Assembly (NCBI GenBank): GCA_016184005.1
Contig: JACPDL010000003.1
Location: 171,632 to 235,631 of the forward strand
Direction of reading: 5' to 3'
DNA length: 64,000 nucleotides
Source: Candidatus Aenigmatarchaeota archaeon
GTDB lineage: Archaea > Aenigmatarchaeota > Aenigmatarchaeia > GW2011-AR5
How positions within the stretch are numbered: position 1 is the stretch's first letter; every line of letters begins with the position of its first letter. The notes under the pieces were generated by a model. It had not been told where the DNA came from. It made no database searches and was given only the letters and a program-made list of their open reading frames with translations. This document shows positions 3,565 through 61,561 of this stretch, piece by piece. The translations under genes were made by a program, and so were the position numbers.

Positions 3565-3969
3565 CTATTCTACTATGACTCCGCCGGCCTGCTCTATCTT
3601 TTCTTTGGCCTTCTTTGAACAGCTGGGAATTCTCACTTTGACGGCAACGTTGATGGAACCTTTTGAAAGAAGTTTCTGGTAACCCATTGAAGACAGGTCA
3701 ATAACTTCCGCATGTTCCTGCACTGAAAGAATCTTTTCCACGTCACCGACATTGATTATTTTCATGGATTTCTTGTTGTGCCTTACAAAACCTTTGTATC
3801 CGTAGTGCTCCGGCTCGTAGTTTACAATATACGAATACTTGTGCTTGTGCGAGCCGCCGTAACCGCGCCCGCCCTTGCTGCCTTTTCCGCGGTGTTTCTT
3901 CTTCGAGCCCCAGCCGTGGGTATGCGTACCTCTCTGTCTTGTATCCTTTTTCCTGAAGCGTAGTGTCAT
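3565..3969 (-). CDS. rpl15: 50S ribosomal protein L15 (uL15)
   Basis: Gly/Lys/Arg-rich N-terminus (GSKGGRGYGGSHKHK), position before SecY. Confidence 0.8.
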   Translation of the reverse strand: MTLRFRKKDTRQRGTHTHGWGSKKKHRGKGSKGGRGYGGSHKHKYSYIVNYEPEHYGYKGFVRHNKKSMKIINVGDVEKILSVQEHAEVIDLSSMGYQKLLSKGSINVAVKVRIPSCSKKAKEKIEQAGGVIVE

Positions 3970-12975: not shown

Positions 12976-13034
12976 AACAAATCCCTTTTCTTGAAAGAAA
13001 AGGTCTTTGTAAACCCCAAAAGAACTTACAAAAC
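12976..13034. repeat. Family-A start-codon-abutting palindromic element, copy in the L22-S3 intergenic region
   Basis: Reverse complement ...ttttgtaagttcttttggggtttacaaagaccttttctttcaagaaaagggatttgtt-ATG(S3). Confidence 0.7.
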
Positions 13035-20081: not shown

Positions 20082-22141
20082 TAAACATCTTCGTAAACAA
20101 TCTCGATGCCGACCTTGCCGGAGACTGTCGTGTCAGAAGCTGCCGAGAATTCTATCGTGTTCAGCTGCCTGAAGTATTCCTTTGGTATGGCTTCGCCTAT
20201 GATCTTGTTGTCGTTCAATATTACAGCAGCGCCGCGGGGCAGCACAGTGATCCTCGCGGACTTGAAGCCCTGCAGCTCGTTGTCCAGCGTGAAATCAAAC
20301 CTGTCCTGCGTGGCTTTCTCCACGTCAGCGATAACAGAAGCCCTGATCTCGTAAACAGCCGGCGTCCAGAATATGAATCCAGACGATGTGGCCCTGATCT
20401 TGAGCAGGCCCTCCGCATCTGCATTAACCGGTATTATTAATCTGCCTTTTTCATACCTGGCGGCAAAATTCTCAAAAAGCGCAGCTTTTTGGAATTCTCG
20501 AAATCCAAAGGATTTCGGAATCTCGGAGAGACGGAGTTTCTCCGAAGATCTCGGAGAAGCTTCGCTTCTCCCAAGATTAGCAGTCTTCAATGCTGCATTG
20601 TCAGGCACAGGCTCAGGTTTTCCCCTGAATAATTCCTCATCATCAAGCGTAACGACAAGCTCCCCGAGCCTGTTTGTTTCCTTGACTTCTATAACAACCT
20701 CCTTGACAAAGGATTTCGGCACGTCAAGCCTTATCTCATTGCTGCCGAACAAGAGGCCGTTGAACAGCCTTTTAGCCGACACGAATGAATCCTCTTCCTT
20801 GAAATTGGCGATGTCTATGCCGAACTCCAGAAGCCTTTTCTTCTCGCCCGGTGTCTTTCCGTCTTCATCAACAATCCCAAGGGCACCAACCGTTATTGTG
20901 ACACTGGAAGGCGCCAGATCAATCAGCCCTTCAGCATCACGCGCATTGAGGGTGGCTATGTATCTGCCATCCCTCTGGTAAATATGGGTAAGTGTCTGTA
21001 TTGATTCTACTGTCGGCAGGGATTGTGCCTGGCCGTCACCAAAATCCAATACGCACGAGACAAGCCGCCTCTGCAGGTCCCTGCAGCGTGCGGCAAATGT
21101 TACCTGCAGCGGAGCAGGGCCGCTTGTCGGCGTTGCCTGCAAGTCCGTAGTAGGCGCATTGCCTATATCCGATTCAACCACGATTGTGACTTCAGCAGGC
21201 GTAGCGTCTATTCTGCCCCTCTCATCAGAGGCCCGGACCTTTGCTATCCTTCGCAGGTCGCTAACCTCCGGGTTGACGTAAACATGGCTGATCTGCTGCG
21301 GCGTTTCTATATTGAGCAGGTTTTGCTGCTCCCCGTCGCCGAATTCTATGACGCATGAGCTGATATCGAAGTTAGCAGAAAAACACAGGACATCAAAGTT
21401 TACCAGTAAAGGCGATTTTCCTCTCACCGGGAAGGCGCTGATGAAAGTCTCAGGCTTGTCGCTAAAGCCGGGCAATACCTGTATCATGATTCCGGCGGGC
21501 GTCTGGTCCCCTGCGCCGGAGTCGTCTCTCGCGCTAAGTATAGCCGGGCGGAAAATGATTCTTTCCCTTTCGTTCTCGTAAGTATGAAGAACAGTCTGCG
21601 GCGTTTCAGCGTTTGTAAGCGCCTGCTTAGCCCCGTCGCCGAAATCCAGTTCGCATGAAGAAATCAACCCATCGTCGTCCTTGCATGTCGCTATGAATGT
21701 GACTTCCAATGGCGATTCGCCTGTCGTCGGAAATGCCTGCAAAAATGTCTGGGGCTCAATGTTTGGCCTCACAACGCTGATTGTTATCAAAGAGGGCGTC
21801 TGGTCGCTGTTGCCGAAGCTGTCTGTTGCTGTAAGCGTGACAACAAAGTTGCCTGTCGTGGAATAGGTGTGGGTTATTGTCTGAGGCAGCTGTATCCTCT
21901 GGAGAATCTGGTTCGTGCCGTCGCCGAAGCTGATTATGCACGAAGCGATCTCAATGTCGTCCTTGCACAATGCCGTAAATATGACTGTCATCGGCGCGTT
22001 GCCAGAAATCTGCGATGCCGTCAATGTAGTTTCAGGAGACGTCGCATCCTGTATTGAAATAAGAACAATCTGGGCGCTAACAGTGCTGACTAGAATCATG
22101 AGCGCCATCAACGCCGATAAAAGTCCTGTTACTCTTGCCAA
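20081..22141 (-). CDS. Secreted surface protein with four PKD-like repeats and a C-terminal domain containing an in-frame MITE-like insertion
   Basis: N-terminal signal peptide MARVTGLLSALMALMILVSTVSAQ; four ~95-aa repeats each with an FGDG motif; segment LGRSEASPRSSEKLRLSEIPKSFGFREFQKAALFE is encoded by repeat copy M2. Confidence 0.6.
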   Translation of the reverse strand: MARVTGLLSALMALMILVSTVSAQIVLISIQDATSPETTLTASQISGNAPMTVIFTALCKDDIEIASCIISFGDGTNQILQRIQLPQTITHTYSTTGNFVVTLTATDSFGNSDQTPSLITISVVRPNIEPQTFLQAFPTTGESPLEVTFIATCKDDDGLISSCELDFGDGAKQALTNAETPQTVLHTYENERERIIFRPAILSARDDSGAGDQTPAGIMIQVLPGFSDKPETFISAFPVRGKSPLLVNFDVLCFSANFDISSCVIEFGDGEQQNLLNIETPQQISHVYVNPEVSDLRRIAKVRASDERGRIDATPAEVTIVVESDIGNAPTTDLQATPTSGPAPLQVTFAARCRDLQRRLVSCVLDFGDGQAQSLPTVESIQTLTHIYQRDGRYIATLNARDAEGLIDLAPSSVTITVGALGIVDEDGKTPGEKKRLLEFGIDIANFKEEDSFVSAKRLFNGLLFGSNEIRLDVPKSFVKEVVIEVKETNRLGELVVTLDDEELFRGKPEPVPDNAALKTANLGRSEASPRSSEKLRLSEIPKSFGFREFQKAALFENFAARYEKGRLIIPVNADAEGLLKIRATSSGFIFWTPAVYEIRASVIADVEKATQDRFDFTLDNELQGFKSARITVLPRGAAVILNDNKIIGEAIPKEYFRQLNTIEFSAASDTTVSGKVGIEIVYEDV
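20469..20575. repeat. Family-M MITE-like element (four consecutive hairpins), full copy lying in frame inside a CDS
   Basis: ~95% identical to the reverse complement of 36970-37076. Confidence 0.75.
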
Positions 22142-26971: not shown

Positions 26972-28174
26972 TCAGGCGAGAGACCGGCACTTTCCAGGAC
27001 CTCGGTAAGGTATTTCATGGGCCGCATAAAATTCTTCTGATGTCTTGTAGCCAAGCGACTTGATTCTGGAATATATGCAAGGACGGGTTATACCGAGTTT
27101 TACTGCAGCGGCAGTCATATTTCCATCAGCCGCTTTAAGCGCCTCAGCCACTGCTTTCTCCGGTCGTTTGGTTCGGGATCTTTCTATCCCATAGGCTCTG
27201 CGAAAGTCTTCAGGAGACGGATAACCTAATTTCGTGATATTATATCTCAGTTGCCTGTCGCTTAACCGGAGGTCGCGTGCGGCGGCAGTCATGTTTCCTC
27301 TGCTTGCTCTAAGCGCCTCAGCTATAAGCTGTCCGCTGAATGCCCGCATCGCGGATGCGTAATCGCCGGGTTGCGCGTACACGGCTCCCGGCTGTTCTTC
27401 GCTTTTCTGTGATTTGCCCGTTTTTCCGCGCAGTATGCTGGGACAGATTTCATCGCCTTCGGACATCACGAAACCGTACAGCAGGATATTGCCGAGTTCC
27501 CTCACGTTTCCCGGAAAATCGTATTCCAGCAGCGCAGACACCGCTTCCGGCGTTAATGTTTTTCTGGCGCTGTTTTGCCTGCACAGCCGGTCCATATAAA
27601 ACCGCGCAATCGGTTCTATATCTTCCCTGCGCTCGCGGAGGGGCGGCATGCAGATCTCCAGGGCGCACAGCCTCTGGTAAAGTTCCTGCCTGAATCCGCC
27701 TTTGTCAGAAAGGTCCCTGCTGGTGGCGGATATTATCCTCACATCGGTATCAGACTGCTTGGTGCCGCCGACAGGTATGAATTCGCCGGTTTCGAGCGCC
27801 CTGAGAAATTTCGGCTGCACATCCATCGGAAGCTCGCCTATTTCATCAAGAAAGAGGGTGCCGCCGTCTGCGCTTTTTAGAACACCCGTGTTGCGGCGAT
27901 ACGCCCCCGTGAACGAGCCCTTTTCATGCCCGAAAAGAATTGACTCTGCAAGTTCGCGCGGTATGCTTGCGCAATCCAGCGGATAGAATAAGGCGGAACT
28001 GCGCCCTGAATTGCGGTGAAGCTGGCGTGCCACAAGCTCTTTTCCGGTCCCTGTTTCGCCTGTTATGAGGACAGGATAATCATAAGCCGCAAACTTCTTT
28101 ATTTTCTGCCGCACGCCTTCTATTTGTACGGACGTTCCTACTATTTCGCATTGTGGATTAAGGCCGCGCATCAT
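26972..28174 (-). CDS. Sigma-54-interaction-domain AAA+ transcriptional activator (bacterial enhancer-binding-protein type), no receiver domain, two tandem Fis-type HTH at the C-terminus
   Basis: Walker A GETGTGKE, ESILFGHEKGSFTGA (GAFTGA-type loop), Walker B GGTLFLDEIGEL, duplicated HTH (NMTAAARDLRLSDRQLRYNITKLGY / NMTAAAVKLGITRPCIYSRIKSLGY). Confidence 0.8.
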   Translation of the reverse strand: MMRGLNPQCEIVGTSVQIEGVRQKIKKFAAYDYPVLITGETGTGKELVARQLHRNSGRSSALFYPLDCASIPRELAESILFGHEKGSFTGAYRRNTGVLKSADGGTLFLDEIGELPMDVQPKFLRALETGEFIPVGGTKQSDTDVRIISATSRDLSDKGGFRQELYQRLCALEICMPPLRERREDIEPIARFYMDRLCRQNSARKTLTPEAVSALLEYDFPGNVRELGNILLYGFVMSEGDEICPSILRGKTGKSQKSEEQPGAVYAQPGDYASAMRAFSGQLIAEALRASRGNMTAAARDLRLSDRQLRYNITKLGYPSPEDFRRAYGIERSRTKRPEKAVAEALKAADGNMTAAAVKLGITRPCIYSRIKSLGYKTSEEFYAAHEIPYRGPGKCRSLA

Positions 28175-29000: not shown

Positions 29001-29090
29001 CCCTTCTTTGTAAAGAAGGTCTTTGTGCACCGAAAGCAAAGCTTTCTGGCATCTCAAAAGCCTTTCAGGCTTTTGCAGACAAACCCCAAG
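29001..29090. repeat. Family-B palindromic repeat element, inverted copy 2
   Basis: Reverse complement ttggggtttgtctgcaaaagcctgaaaggcttttgagatgccagaaagctttgc... matches 6021-6125. Confidence 0.7.
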
Positions 29091-29154
29091 AAACAGAGGA
29101 CTTCGCAAATATTAAGGGATTGTGAGAATGGAAGATCGCTTGCATGGCAAGAGG

Positions 29155-29241
29155 AGAAACTACGTATCTCCCTCTACCCTCTCCCTTCTGAAGGAAACGA
29201 GGTTAGAAGGAGAGAAACCATGGGTTTCTTCTCCTCTTATG
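29155..29241. repeat. Family-D structured repeat (gaggagaaactacgtatctccctctaccctctccctt...) flanked by a 7-bp direct repeat caagagg
   Basis: Shares ~38 bp with the inverted copy at 32999-33036; internal hairpins; 7-bp flank duplication at 29148-29154 and 29242-29248. Confidence 0.5.
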
Positions 29242-29276
29242 CAAGAGGCTTCGGGTTCGAGTCCCGATCGGTCCAT

Positions 29277-29327
29277 CATCCAATCCCTTTCTTAAAAAGA
29301 AAGGTCTTGGAGAACCCCAAAGAATAA
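29277..29327. repeat. Family-C repeat atccaatccctttcttaaaaagaaaggtcttggagaaccccaaagaataa, copy 1
   Basis: Near-identical copy at 36851-36900. Confidence 0.7.
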
Positions 29328-29397: not shown

Positions 29398-29508
29398 GGG
29401 CTCGTGGTCTAGTGGAATGACGCGACGTTCGCAAAGAGGAGAAATATGTATCTCTCTCAAAAATATTGAAATACGTCGAGGCCGGGGGTTCGAATCCCCC
29501 CGAGTCCA
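29398..29508 (+). tRNA. tRNA-Ala (anticodon CGC) with a ~39-nt intron at/near position 37/38
   Basis: Acceptor GGGCTCG/CGAGTCC with G3:U70 Ala identity pair; anticodon stem CGACG/CGTCG; loop TTCGCAA; T-arm GGGGGTTCGAATCCCCC; discriminator A; CCA not encoded. Confidence 0.8.
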
Positions 29509-29577
29509 TCAGTTTTTGGGGTTATAGGTATCTGTTAGTTTTTGAACGCTTTTGAAGATTAAAGTTATAAGATTTTT

Positions 29578-29931
29578 ATGGTGGATAAAGCAGAATCATA
29601 TTTTCATTTGGCACAATTGCTCGCAACTATAGCTGGATTCTTTATCTTAGGTGCTACAATTTTTTATGCATCATCAGGGCAACTTTTAGCTTCAAGCATG
29701 CAAACTAGCAATGATGTCACAAAATCTCTATTATCAATAAATCTCAGTAATGTTGACCAATCCATTCTGAGTATAGTTGAATCCGACATAAAAGTGGCAA
29801 ATGCAGCAAAGGAAGGAAGTATCAAGAAAGAAGAGATTGGTATGAGGTTACTTATTTTTGGTGTAATTTTTATTATAGCATCCTTAGTAGTTTGGTGTTA
29901 TGGAGATTCGAAATGTAAACATATAACTTAG
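29578..29931 (+). CDS. Small membrane protein (2 predicted TM helices), first gene of the AT-rich island
   Basis: 117 aa, two hydrophobic helices; very AT-rich codons. Confidence 0.4.
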   Translation: MVDKAESYFHLAQLLATIAGFFILGATIFYASSGQLLASSMQTSNDVTKSLLSINLSNVDQSILSIVESDIKVANAAKEGSIKKEEIGMRLLIFGVIFIIASLVVWCYGDSKCKHIT

Positions 29932-30011
29932 AGGTCTTGGGTTAATATTCAACACTATAAAGAGACTCTCAATTTTTGAACGCTTAAATTTATACTGGAG
30001 ACTACACATTC

Positions 30012-30596
30012 ATGTTCAATCTAACGCTAGATACATCTTGTTTTTCTCTAAGAAAAGAGGAAAATTCTTTGTTGAACGAGCTTTTAGAATTACAAGCAGA
30101 TTCAAAAATATTGTTGTACTACGCACCACGAACTTTACAAGAACTTATGATGTCCATTGCAAAGAAAAAAGAATTACCGAAAGTAATTGAAATGAAGATA
30201 AAATATAGGTTTCGAGATGTGTTCAGAGATTATTTAGAAAATATGGACGAGATTGACCCAGAACTCGAATGGGAAGACGAGTTCCACGAAATAGGACTAT
30301 TTGTTACAAGAGTATGTCTCGAAATTACTGACAAAAACGTAATAGAAAAGTTAGAAGTGTCAGAAGAAAACTTACGTAGATATTTGGATAGCCAGAAGAA
30401 CCATAACAGTCATACAGATATTGATATATTCACATTTCATGTTATGAACAAAGGTAATATATTCCTGACTAAAGATGTACCGTTGTTTGTAAGTAATCAA
30501 AAAACAAGAGAAACACTGGAAAATAAATATAACACAAAAATTAGACTCCTAAATAAAGATTTTATTGAAGAATTAAAAAATATGATAGAGGCTTGA
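30012..30596 (+). CDS. Hypothetical protein, possibly a PIN-like nuclease
   Basis: N-terminal LTLDTSCF (PIN motif-I-like Asp), downstream acidic residues, C-terminal IFLTKDVPLF (PIN motif-IV-like T-x-D). Weak assignment. Confidence 0.35.
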   Translation: MFNLTLDTSCFSLRKEENSLLNELLELQADSKILLYYAPRTLQELMMSIAKKKELPKVIEMKIKYRFRDVFRDYLENMDEIDPELEWEDEFHEIGLFVTRVCLEITDKNVIEKLEVSEENLRRYLDSQKNHNSHTDIDIFTFHVMNKGNIFLTKDVPLFVSNQKTRETLENKYNTKIRLLNKDFIEELKNMIEA

Positions 30597-31777
30597 TGCT
30601 TATGGAGTCTATGAATTATAAAAGTCCAATTAAGGTCAGAAATATAGAAATAGTAAATCAGTTAAAAGAGTTCTATTCTCTCTCTTCAAATATTGATTTA
30701 CCAAAAGACATAGAAACTCAAGTAATTGACATTGCCGTCAAGAAGATTGATCAAGATAAAAAAGTTGTAGAAAAAAGATTATTGGGATTAAATAAAGAAG
30801 ATGAATTTGTACTGACTTCTCTTCTGTTAGGAAATGCCCTTCAAGTTACAAGGCTTTCACAACAAAAGATTACACAAGATTTAGATTATCAAATACCAGA
30901 TTTTTTAGTATGCACTAGGGTTCCAAAAATTGTAGATAAAGATGGGGATAAAATAAACAGGTTTTTTGTAGAAGTCAAAAAATTATCAGAGAATGAAAGT
31001 GATTTTAAAATAACGCAGGATTATTTTAATAAACTTAAGAAATATTGCAAAACTTACTCTTTGCCACTTTACTTTGCAATTAAGTTAGAGCTTGGAGGTG
31101 TTGGTTTTTCTCAATGGGCTTTAATTTTCTCTGATACCGTAGAAAACTCTGGACAAATTAAAAAGCTAAAAATAAGAAAAGATAGCAAAGAAGAAGATTG
31201 TTATTTATTTACATTGAAAGACTTATTATCGAAAGACTTCTCAGGTTTATGGATGGACAATCATCTATTATTTTTGTCGGAGGGTTCGGTCTATAGAAAG
31301 GTTTATGATATTAATAAAGAATCCCCAATTCATATTACATCTGAAACAGGCGAAGATTTGGGAGGACTTGTAGAAGTAGAATTAAAAAACGGTAGTATTT
31401 CTGAAAAAGTAACGTTCGAAAAAGATAAACATGATGTCAGAGATATAATTTTCTATAATATTGCAATGAGAATAGCCAGAGGTAAAGAAACAATACAGAC
31501 TACAAATACGACAACTGAGAAAATTATAGAAGCTGATAAAAACTATTCAATCCCGCTTTATCATTTAGTTTTAGAAATTTACCTTCACTTACGTTCAAGA
31601 TTTGGAGAAAGCTGGAAGGAACCCAGATCAGATATAAGTTTTTACTTATCCCACTTAACAGACTTTGATTATAAAATATCTTATTTTATAAGAGATATAA
31701 TAATTAATTTACACAAGAATAATATAATTAAATTAATTAGAATGGTACCAGATTTTTTAATGGAAAATGATGACTAA
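30593..31777 (+). CDS. Hypothetical protein with a PD-(D/E)xK nuclease-like core
   Basis: IPDFLVCTRVPKIVDKDGDKINRFFVEVKK = PD ... E-V-K spacing typical of the restriction-endonuclease-like fold; start overlaps the upstream stop (ATGA). Confidence 0.45.
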   Translation: MMLMESMNYKSPIKVRNIEIVNQLKEFYSLSSNIDLPKDIETQVIDIAVKKIDQDKKVVEKRLLGLNKEDEFVLTSLLLGNALQVTRLSQQKITQDLDYQIPDFLVCTRVPKIVDKDGDKINRFFVEVKKLSENESDFKITQDYFNKLKKYCKTYSLPLYFAIKLELGGVGFSQWALIFSDTVENSGQIKKLKIRKDSKEEDCYLFTLKDLLSKDFSGLWMDNHLLFLSEGSVYRKVYDINKESPIHITSETGEDLGGLVEVELKNGSISEKVTFEKDKHDVRDIIFYNIAMRIARGKETIQTTNTTTEKIIEADKNYSIPLYHLVLEIYLHLRSRFGESWKEPRSDISFYLSHLTDFDYKISYFIRDIIINLHKNNIIKLIRMVPDFLMENDD

Positions 31778-31989
31778 TTTAATTTCTCCTTAACTTTCCC
31801 ATAAACCTTGAATGGCTTGTCAGACCTAGCATGTTTTCTCAAATAATGCAAAGAACTCTTGTTTATGCCAATTTTCTTTGCTTCTGACTGGGATAAGCTT
31901 AATATTTTTTGCCTCAACTTAAAGTCATCCTCTCTTTTCAATACTAGTGAAGGCTCTGAAAAGTCGATGCTAGGCTTCTTACCTATCAA
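31774..31989 (-). CDS. Small hypothetical ORF (71 aa) at the distal edge of the island
   Basis: Intact ORF; no family recognised. Confidence 0.2.
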   Translation of the reverse strand: MIGKKPSIDFSEPSLVLKREDDFKLRQKILSLSQSEAKKIGINKSSLHYLRKHARSDKPFKVYGKVKEKLN

Positions 31990-32135
31990 GTAATGAGCCA
32001 GTTCTTGAGCTTTAAATAAAGTGATTTTCAGTTTTCAAATCCTTATGTCCTCGAGTCCATTGAACCTCAGGTATAAGCCACGATGCTATCCAAATCTTTA
32101 ATAGTATTCTTCACTATTAATTATAGGCGAATTGT

Positions 32136-32336
32136 ATGAACGGAACATTCGAGAAAGAAGTCATGAGAGAATTGAAGTCGTTAAAGGGCGAGATTGATTA
32201 CATAAAGGAATTTCTTGAGGATACACACCTTACCCCTGTTGAGAAGAGATTTGTTGATTCTAAAATCAAAAAGATAAAATCGGGCGATACATCGGACTTT
32301 ATCCCTTGGAAAAAAGCCAAGAAAAAGCTGGGCTAA
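32136..32336 (+). CDS. Putative antitoxin partner of the RelE/ParE-like toxin
   Basis: 66-aa ORF immediately upstream of the toxin gene. Confidence 0.4.
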   Translation: MNGTFEKEVMRELKSLKGEIDYIKEFLEDTHLTPVEKRFVDSKIKKIKSGDTSDFIPWKKAKKKLG

Positions 32337-32341
32337 TTCTT

Positions 32342-32602
32342 ATGTTCAGTGCGCTTATCGAAGGTCAGGCATTGAAGTTCTTGGAGAAACTAAAAGACGC
32401 ACAATTGAAGAAAAGACTTATGAATAAGATAGACGAACTTGAACAAGACCCTTTTCCAAGAAACTGCAAGACGATTGAAGGATACGATCAGAAAGTTTTT
32501 CGGGTAAGGGTGGGCGGATATAGAATTCTTTATTATGTGGTTTTCGAGACCAGTATAGTCTATGTCTTTATCATTGACAAAAGAGGCGTAGTTTACGGCT
32601 AG
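32342..32602 (+). CDS. Type II toxin, RelE/ParE family
   Basis: FSALIEGQALKFLEKL...KRLMNKIDELEQDPFPRN...FRVRVGGYRILYYV...VYVFIIDKRG matches the RelE/ParE fold consensus. Track ORF starts at 32306; Met at 32342 preferred. Confidence 0.7.
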   Translation: MFSALIEGQALKFLEKLKDAQLKKRLMNKIDELEQDPFPRNCKTIEGYDQKVFRVRVGGYRILYYVVFETSIVYVFIIDKRGVVYG

Positions 32603-32647
32603 TCTGGGAACTTAACCGTTGGGTCTGTATACCTCCGTGTCCAGTGA

Positions 32648-32950
32648 TTAAAAACTGAACCTGTTCCTGTATTCCCTTCTTCCGTTTTTCCTTGCAGCTT
32701 CAGATTTCGACATTATCTTTTCTTTGACGGCTTCGGGGCTTGTTTTCATTCTATGCGCGACCGCCGCCACAACCCTTTCGCTCCTGCACCAGTATGATAC
32801 AGCACGACTAGGAACTTCATAGGCCAGTCCGATTTGCAAGTGGGTCCTTTTAGGACAAGTAACATACTCAATCACGGCTTCGACTCTGGTTTTCATGGGG
32901 TAGGCTTGCATCCCAGGAATTTCGATAGAAAACCTTATATTCGTTCCCAT
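32648..32950 (-). CDS. Hypothetical 100-aa protein
   Basis: Intact ORF; no confident family. Confidence 0.3.
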   Translation of the reverse strand: MGTNIRFSIEIPGMQAYPMKTRVEAVIEYVTCPKRTHLQIGLAYEVPSRAVSYWCRSERVVAAVAHRMKTSPEAVKEKIMSKSEAARKNGRREYRNRFSF

Positions 32951-32998: not shown

Positions 32999-33036
32999 AA
33001 GGGAGAGGGTAGAAGGAGATACGCAGTTTCTCCTCT
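32999..33036. repeat. Family-D repeat, inverted partial copy
   Basis: Reverse complement gaggagaaactgcgtatctccttctaccctctccctt matches 29150-29187. Confidence 0.5.
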
Positions 33037-33072
33037 TTTAAGCTTGTCTGCGACTCATAAGGCTGTGATTCC

Positions 33073-36850: not shown

Positions 36851-36900
36851 AATCCAATCCCTTTCTTAAAAGAAAGGTCTTGGAGAACCCCAAAGAATAA
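36851..36900. repeat. Family-C repeat, copy 2
   Basis: aatccaatccctttcttaaaagaaaggtcttggagaaccccaaagaataa. Confidence 0.7.
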
Positions 36901-36969
36901 ATATGGCTGCTTTGTGTCTTGCTATCGGAACTACAAACCAAAGGCTTTCTGCTTGGAGAACCCCAAAGT

Positions 36970-37076
36970 CTTGGGAGAAGCGAAGCTTCTCCGAGATCTT
37001 CAGAGAAACCTCGTTTCTCTGAGATTCCGAAATCCTATGGATTTCGAGAATTCCAAAAAGCTGCGCTTTTTGAGAA
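36970..37076. repeat. Family-M MITE-like element, full copy: four consecutive perfect hairpins
   Basis: gagaagc-gaa-gcttctc; cagagaaac-ctc-gtttctctg; cgaaatcc-tat-ggatttcg; caaaaagc-tgc-gctttttg. Flanked by the 19-bp direct repeat aataaatatggctgctttg (36896-36914 and 37077-37095). Confidence 0.75.
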
Positions 37077-61376: not shown

Positions 61377-61561
61377 GCCGAGGTAGTTCAGCGGTAGAAC
61401 GCCACGCTCATAAAGGCTTTTCTTTTAAAAAAGAAAACCCTGGAAAAGAAACAGAAATAAAAATTGGAAAGAAAACTTTCAAGAATTATGAGCTTTGAGA
61501 TGCTTTGCATCAGTGATAATGAGAAACGTGGAGGTCGTGAGTTCGAACCTCATCCTCGGCA
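61377..61561 (+). tRNA. tRNA-Met (anticodon CAT, elongator-type) with a ~113-nt intron (61414-61526)
   Basis: Acceptor GCCGAGG/CCTCGGC; D-arm GTTC-AGCGGTA-GAAC; anticodon stem CCACG/CGTGG; loop CTCATAA; T-arm GTGAG-TTCGAAC-CTCAT; discriminator A. Confidence 0.7.

Follow-up and report, generated by a model that had tools for sequence, protein, structure and literature searches.

Archaeal elements integrate most commonly into transfer RNA genes (PMC4158269). The present analysis concerns one such gene, coding tRNA-Ala(CGC), and the AT-rich island that follows it in the genome of a member of Candidatus Aenigmarchaeota (DPANN); the region was studied within a stretch of 64,000 nucleotides, hereafter the window (contig JACPDL010000003.1 of assembly GCA_016184005.1, positions 171,632 to 235,631, forward strand). 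The island contains two adjacent genes, here designated gene 1 and gene 2, which code for a probable PIN-like nuclease and for a PD-(D/E)xK nuclease of the Hjc type, respectively. The overall picture, to which a probability of about 0.6 is assigned, is that of decayed, tRNA-targeted mobile DNA carrying two independent nuclease cargo genes, each from a family that, in other archaea, moves by itself through variable or mobile regions. A preliminary description of the same DNA had proposed a decayed integrated element and, within it, a two-gene defence or toxin module: the former proposal is supported, as the data are consistent with integrase-less foreign DNA at the 3′ end of tRNA-Ala, while the latter was not borne out, as detailed below.

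The foreign origin of the island is apparent from its base composition. The GC content of positions 29512-32060 is 30.7%, compared with 45.5% for the whole window; this is the lowest-GC 2.55-kb stretch in the 64 kb, about 4 standard deviations under the mean, and also the strongest tetranucleotide outlier of the window, with a z score of about 5. Codon usage shows the same contrast, since the GC content at third codon positions (GC3) is 0.29 for gene 1, 0.22 for gene 2 and 0.25 for a small gene preceding them, which codes for a protein with two transmembrane-type segments (2-TM), versus 0.53-0.62 for the host genes; a small open reading frame (ORF) downstream of gene 2, ORF71 (GC3 0.43), and two toxin-antitoxin genes fall at 0.42-0.48. 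Likelihood change-points were found at 29510, at 31785 and at about 32600-32725, and they separate segments having successive GC fractions of 0.49, 0.30, 0.38 and 0.51. The left change-point corresponds to the 3′ end of tRNA-Ala, which ends at 29508; the 30%-GC core stops at about 31785, which is the end of gene 2, and from there a 38%-GC shoulder extends to the third change-point. The drop directly after the tRNA, which had been judged only by eye, is confirmed by these computations, but the right side of the island consists of two steps and not of the single edge at about 32.1 kb that had been described.

The tRNA-Ala(CGC) gene occupies positions 29398-29508 on the plus strand and contains an intron of about 39 nt (about 29435-29473), which the preliminary description did not mention although it had correctly placed a tRNA-Ala beside the island. 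Rfam RF00005 scores 51.6 bits for the gene; the anticodon loop reads UUCGCAA, giving Ala(CGC), and the G3:U70 pair is present. Its 3′ end represents the left junction of the foreign DNA, on the attL side.

Evidence on integration was sought in direct repeats of this 3′ end. The preliminary description had relied on a 9-mer, CGAGTCCAT, found at 29501 and 32052, and these are indeed the sole two copies in the window; however, its estimate of chance occurrence was too optimistic, because two or more copies of the 9-mer occur in 7 of 100 whole-window shuffles, and in 95% of shuffles the 71-nt 3′ region of the tRNA shares some match of 9 nt or more with the 3.5-kb island. The bare 9-mer repeat is not significant. 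The argument is rescued by a longer, degenerate repeat which contains it, DR1 (32034-32060, plus strand), identified by gapped local alignment: DR1 reads TTCAAATCC[ttatgt]CCTCGAGTCCAT and aligns to the tRNA sequence TTCGAATCC-CCCCGAGTCCAT with 19 of 21 identities and one 6-nt indel. Its gapped score of 12 is reached in 0.5-1.2% of shuffles (P about 0.005-0.012). A second repeat, DR2 (32621-32643, plus strand), reads GGGTCTGTATACCTCCGTGTCCA, ends in GTCCA and is ungapped, with 17 of 23 identities and a score of 11; none of 400 shuffles and none of 16 control chunks of the same window gave a second-best score as high as 11. Both repeats are co-linear with tRNA-Ala and terminate at its 3′ terminus. 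Moreover, DR1 divides the 30%-GC block, together with ORF71, from the 38%-GC block, and DR2 is located at the return to host composition, at the third change-point. Jointly the two repeats are beyond chance and in line with the three-step GC profile, which suggests two tandem integrase-less remnants: remnant A (29510-32033, about 30% GC), which is bounded by the tRNA 3′ end and DR1 and comprises the 2-TM gene, gene 1, gene 2 and ORF71, and remnant B (32061-32620, about 38% GC), which lies between the two att-like repeats and holds a RelE/ParE toxin-antitoxin pair. The simplest history would probably consist of two tandem, site-specific integrations of mobile DNA at the 3′ end of the intron-containing tRNA-Ala(CGC), after which the recombinase (integrase), the replication genes and most of the other genes would have been lost.

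An independent parallel to this arrangement is present in a contig from another lineage (L002, 3654-4817), where a complete tRNA-Ala(CGC) at 3654-3726, intron-less unlike that of the source genome, is followed by a 484-bp insert, by a repeat of the tRNA 3′ end, and then by a gene 1 homologue. The repeat matches the 3′ end of tRNA-Ala(CGC) at 27 of 29 positions, with a score of 25 against a shuffle maximum of 16, and the homologue, which at 68% identity is the closest one to gene 1 in another lineage, starts 4 nt past it. The insert holds an ORF fragment containing an HExxH motif; the GC content of the gene 1 homologue is 34%, and that of the next flank 53%. This layout is that of a tandem remnant and, because of it, the same cargo gene can be placed at an att-type repeat of tRNA-Ala(CGC) in a different host.

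Several findings weigh against an origin by integration. The sharpest of the right-hand GC breaks, at about 31785, lies 250 bp to the left of DR1; DR1 requires a 6-nt indel, and DR2 is identical at just 17 of 23 positions. In agreement with the preliminary description, domain and profile scans against Pfam, NCBIfam and PHROGs identified no integrase among the seven ORFs between 29.5 and 33 kb. An integrase split by the insertion, of the SSV type, was considered and rejected, as no integrase-like open frame runs across DR1, DR2 or the tRNA end. No empty-site comparator was found either, since a search of the GTDB representative genomes gave no relative of the flanking NTP-transferase, and the Logan contigs that contain the identical flanking gene all carry the insert or break inside it. 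Some of these points would suit a different explanation, according to which no site-specific integration occurred, the low-GC genes having been gained by another form of horizontal transfer or belonging to a fast-evolving variable region, with the proximity to the tRNA and the repeats being coincidental. The missing integrase and the non-significant 9-mer speak for it; furthermore, short intergenic repeats, which are potentially misleading, are numerous in the host genome. Several gene 2 homologues have a tRNA gene at a distance of 0.3-1.3 kb; tRNAs occur nearby at 4 of about 13 loci, a frequency that is not clearly above expectation for small genomes. On the other side, coincidence does not readily account for a GC change-point on the exact tRNA 3′ end, for two co-linear copies of this end at compositional steps, or for the abutting of the closest gene 1 homologue on a 27/29 tRNA-Ala(CGC) repeat in another lineage; this explanation is accordingly regarded as rather unlikely, and tRNA-targeted integration is preferred.

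Gene 2 (HYU56_02395; 30602-31777, plus strand) codes for a protein of 391 aminoacids, counted from the ATG at 30602, which is 100% identical to a hypothetical protein of a Candidatus Aenigmarchaeota metagenome-assembled genome (MAG), where it is encoded on a 549-kb contig. It consists of an N-terminal helical region, an Hjc-type nuclease core and a C-terminal region that is beta-rich and helical. The core spans about residues 60-185 and includes E66, D100, E124 and K126; across 14 homologues, having 28-36% identity, E66, P99, D100, V125 and K126 are invariant, and position 124 is E in 13 and D in the remaining one, so that the PD...ExK signature proposed from the gene 2 sequence is well founded. 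The AlphaFold2 model is confident (pLDDT 84.8, pTM 0.83), and the protein has the alpha-beta-beta-beta-alpha-beta core fold of the restriction-endonuclease-like type. By sequence profiles the relationship is faint: TnsA_N is matched with an E value of 0.013, and NOV_C in 10 of the 14 members; the gene 2 protein itself matches neither of the Hjc profiles (PF01870, NF040854), and its distant relatives remain below the cutoffs, with 16-19 bits versus 21.1 and 16-25 bits versus 70. An exhaustive HMM search retrieved a total of about 270 gene 2 clusters, of which about 16 are full-length; the majority are proteins of 320-370 aminoacids having the N-terminal helical and the nuclease regions. Gene 2 is a PD-(D/E)xK nuclease of the Hjc type, but it is not an Hjc orthologue. 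The protein is predicted to cut DNA as a Mg-dependent endonuclease, and it is probably dimeric like Hjc, while its additional N- and C-terminal domains may supply the choice of the target.

The kinship to Hjc raises the question of whether gene 2 might be the element's own resolvase of Holliday junctions or replication intermediates, comparable to those of some archaeal viruses and plasmids, which was left behind by chance together with gene 1 as an unrelated passenger. This proposal is unlikely, considering that the gene 2 family is missing from the viral contigs of IMG/VR and from PHROGs, that its homologues occur alone among cellular genes, as in Methanobacterium paludis, and that the protein, with its extra domains, is three times as large as Hjc. 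As a separate observation, one gene 2 homologue (L024, 109-1203; L025, 561-1601) is split by several in-frame stop codons in one reading frame, and represents either a pseudogene or a gene of an organism with a reassigned stop codon.

Gene 1 (HYU56_02390; 30012-30596, plus strand) codes for a protein of 194 aminoacids, again 100% identical to a hypothetical protein of the Candidatus Aenigmarchaeota MAG, and belongs to a rare family of 13 clusters. It is a probable PIN-like nuclease of VapC fold, with a helical insert of about 70 residues after strand 2. PIN-like proteins are recognized by at least four acidic residues, located after S1, in the helix after S2 (a Glu in the VapC type), at the N-terminus of H4 and after S4 (PMC5499597). 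Four acids of gene 1 are conserved across the family, D7 in 12 of 13 clusters (E in one), E44 and D136 in all 13 and D155 in 12, and they fit these positions relative to the predicted secondary structure; T8, S9, H143 and T153 are conserved as well. Thus, the PIN-like LDTS...T-x-D features noted earlier are present, the latter as T153-x-D155, and are conserved in the family.

Other results argue against this assignment. The third core strand of the parallel sheet in the three-layer alpha/beta/alpha PIN fold is not clearly evident in the structure model, gene 1 has no match in Pfam and remains below threshold for all the curated PIN models, and Foldseek against PDB gave nothing significant. The hhalign comparison of the family with the verified Shigella VapC is also not significant (E 0.16); the alignment is limited to the 'D..ILA.H...FVTKD' region, and at the Asp it is shifted by one residue. 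Single family members match PIN_12 (E 0.035) and PIN_3 (E 0.06) weakly. On balance, a PIN-like nuclease is considered probable, by a fair distance from certainty. Within the superfamily, the PIN_12/DUF4935 proteins have a long helical insert after S2, map to the structures 1y82 and 3tnd and are usually monocistronic (PMC5499597). Most likely, gene 1 is a solitary metal-dependent nuclease of this style and not a VapBC toxin: upstream of it lies the 117-aminoacid 2-TM gene, with its own promoter-like motif, in the place where VapBC systems have the antitoxin, and at the loci of its homologues the upstream partners are unrelated or absent.

The 2-TM gene (29578-29931, plus strand) shows two clear hydrophobic segments by hydropathy, as the preliminary description had stated, and its product has no significant match in Pfam, NCBIfam, PADLOC or PHROGs. 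A 13-nt motif, TTTTTGAACGCTT, occurs on the plus strand at 29539-29551 and at 29973-29985, its only two copies in the 64 kb; the first starts 39 nt upstream of the ATG of the 2-TM gene and the second, which is followed by a TATA-like AAATTTATA, starts 39 nt upstream of the ATG of gene 1. The motif is a putative shared promoter-proximal or operator element and, because it sits exactly 39 nt before both start codons, it suggests two co-regulated, probably leaderless transcription units of one element. Remnant A would then retain two such units, the 2-TM gene and a bicistronic gene 1-gene 2 operon. The shared motif is the only hint of a common past for the three low-GC genes and does not demonstrate a common function. 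ORF71 (31774-31989, minus strand), convergent to gene 2, contains a helix-turn-helix (HTH)-looking stretch, has a frame that closes at 32035-32037, at the edge of DR1, and matches no family in the Pfam, NCBIfam or PHROG scans.

Gene 1 and gene 2 had been described as an overlapping pair and a candidate module. The overlap had been given as ATGA at 30593-30596; the junction at 30593-30598 actually reads TTGATG (T-TGA-TG), and gene 2 has three candidate starts, TTG at 30593 (4-nt overlap), ATG at 30596 (1-nt overlap with the TGA stop) and ATG at 30602 (+5 nt; the NCBI call), each of which preserves the tight coupling of the two genes. The families were then compared across their genomic contexts: gene 2 loci came from Methanobacterium paludis, a Methanobacterium MAG, Micrarchaeota and Nanoarchaeota MAGs and about 12 metagenome contigs, and gene 1 loci from seven further contigs, corresponding to at least 10 independent loci with enough upstream DNA for gene 2 and to about 6 for gene 1. 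HMMs of both families, run on six-frame ORFs of 30+ loci, revealed no co-occurrence outside the source genome, and all-against-all BLAST identified no recurrent neighbour of any kind for the gene 2 homologues. PADLOC-DB 2.0 gave no match at E<=0.1 for any of the seven island ORFs, the only convincing PHROG match among them was that of the ParE toxin, and both families are absent from IMG/VR. Profile searches of PDB by sequence returned no matches.

A joint action of the two proteins, as a new defence or toxin module made of two nucleases, for example with RNA sensing or processing by one and DNA cutting by the other, or with one kept in check by the other, could be argued from their adjacency or translational coupling (-4, -1 or +5 nt depending on the start), from the same extreme composition and the single promoter-like motif ahead of them, from the catalytic residues kept in both, and from the defence- or mobile-type neighbourhoods of the homologues of each family, which include TIR, Mrr, UvrD-PDDEXK and restriction-modification (R-M) genes. 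However, the module reading fails because the two families are not neighbours at any of the other loci compared (at least 10 independent ones for gene 2 and about 6 for gene 1), an outcome that the preliminary description had itself named as telling against its proposal; in addition, the gene 2 homologues have no recurrent partner, PADLOC recognizes none of the genes, and the gene 1 family resembles the monocistronic DUF4935-type PINs. Such a module is therefore quite unlikely. The tight operon could still be a lineage-specific functional partnership, which counts against regarding the two genes as independent. Similarly improbable is the broader proposal that the locus holds either a new, lineage-specific DPANN nuclease operon for defence or abortive infection, maybe including the 2-TM protein, or, in gene 2, a new class of stand-alone Hjc-derived endonucleases; in the latter version the enzymes might be of the homing type or involved in modification-dependent restriction, with the C-terminal domain of gene 2 serving for target recognition.

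The favoured picture, decayed tRNA-targeted DNA with two independent nuclease genes, also draws on the neighbourhoods of the homologues. One gene 2 homologue (L004) adjoins TIR, UDG and tyrosine integrase genes. In two lineages, gene 1 homologues come directly after an rve DDE transposase gene, whose 3′ end they overlap by about 1-4 nt (L007, 993-3222; L033, 1282-2075, and L034, 1-791), the L007 copy being fused to a C-terminal GNAT acetyltransferase domain; another gene 1 homologue has a UvrD-PDDEXK helicase-nuclease and an Mrr-like gene as neighbours, and a further one lies in an R-M-like cluster. Gene 1 and gene 2 would then be independent cargo that happen to share one operon here. The best guess on their role is that they are stand-alone selfish or defensive nucleases, kept because individually selectable, and possibly acting in defence, addiction or element maintenance.

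The RelE/ParE pair of remnant B (32136-32602) was not mentioned in the preliminary description; it lies outside the coordinates given there and does not involve gene 1 or gene 2. The toxin, of 98 aminoacids (32306-32602, plus strand), matches Pfam ParE_toxin PF05016 with 30.5 bits versus a cutoff of 23, and the PHROG of RelE-like toxins with an E value of 5.5e-13. The putative antitoxin is a 66-aminoacid ORF (32136-32336, plus strand) that overlaps the start of the toxin gene and has no Pfam match.

The host sequence around the island shows further features. ARAGORN reported no tRNAs over the 64-kb window, a false negative because the tRNAs of the window carry introns; Rfam identified two, both intron-containing, the second of which (61377-61561) has an unusually long intron of about 115 nt. 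A diverged tRNA-Ala paralogue, not called by Rfam, is located at 29113-29278, 5′ of the real tRNA-Ala; its 5′ half, the intron start, the T-arm and the acceptor 3′ strand can be aligned to tRNA-Ala, and the anticodon position reads GGC. Its long structured insert holds a 39-nt element, of which a 95% identical inverted copy is found just 5′ of the minus-strand ORF 32648-32950. This inverted repeat (29149-29187 and 32999-33037) was evaluated as the termini of an element or as pairing arms of a split tRNA, and was rejected as an island boundary because similar intergenic repeat families abound in the host genome and because the left copy falls inside the paralogue; the element and the paralogue may reflect the spread of a tRNA-intron-derived repeat, or a pseudo-tRNA. 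Indeed, the host contains several families of short intergenic hairpin repeats (29286-29327, the same as 36859-36900; 12985-13026; 29001-29042), the longest intergenic repeat being a 108-nt inverted pair with 94% identity (20469-20576 and 36969-37076). The Logan contigs of the source organism break at 29295 and 36897 because of a pair of 47-nt host repeat copies. Finally, the minus-strand gene at 26972-28174 codes for a bacterial-type AAA+ protein having a sigma-54 interaction domain and Fis-type HTH domains (Pfam 1.4e-58). To our knowledge sigma-54 is absent from Archaea, so the protein is probably a regulator that was acquired horizontally or repurposed.

Taken as a whole, the locus offers a clean and small example of how DPANN archaea, despite their tiny genomes, may gain and keep nuclease and toxin genes via tRNA-targeted integration. 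It also draws attention to two uncharacterised archaeal families, the nucleases of about 370-390 aminoacids with an Hjc core and a rare PIN-like family that is associated with rve transposases and with tRNA att sites; both are outside Pfam, NCBIfam, PADLOC and PHROGs, which makes them reasonable targets for biochemical studies. Both are uncharacterised families of known superfamilies, the type of island is well known, and no new kind of system is revealed.

The comparison with the known systems places each component of the island. With respect to Hjc (PF01870; PDB 2wcw, 1gef, 1hh1), gene 2 has 14% identity and no match to the Pfam model, is three times larger than the single-domain enzymes of about 120-140 aminoacids, and possesses an N-terminal helical region and a C-terminal beta/alpha region of about 200 aminoacids, of no assigned fold, which are absent from Hjc; furthermore, Hjc is a core repair gene, whereas the gene 2 family is patchy and island-associated. 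For gene 1, DUF4935/PIN_12 is a good analogue by virtue of the long helical insert after S2; gene 1 differs in being 194 aminoacids long without the DUF4935 C-terminal region, and in contrast to VapBC no VapB-type antitoxin gene precedes it. The pair of remnant B resembles the type II RelE/ParE pairs in its 98-aminoacid toxin above the Pfam cutoff and in the small ORF overlapping it upstream, and differs from them in that the putative antitoxin belongs to no recognised family. The archaeal tRNA-integrated elements and remnants, as portrayed by She et al. 2004 via PMC4158269 and in PMC2718499, differ from the island in that it has no integrase, whole or split, and measures only about 3.1 kb in total, and in that its short repeats are degenerate, with 19/21 identities and an indel in one and 17/23 in the other, when compared with the perfect repeats of 15-55 nt of intact elements. 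The island shares with the elements so portrayed a foreign composition whose onset coincides exactly with the 3′ end of the tRNA, directly repeated copies of the 3′ segment of the tRNA, here delimiting two tandem blocks, and a cargo of ORFan and nuclease or toxin-antitoxin genes.

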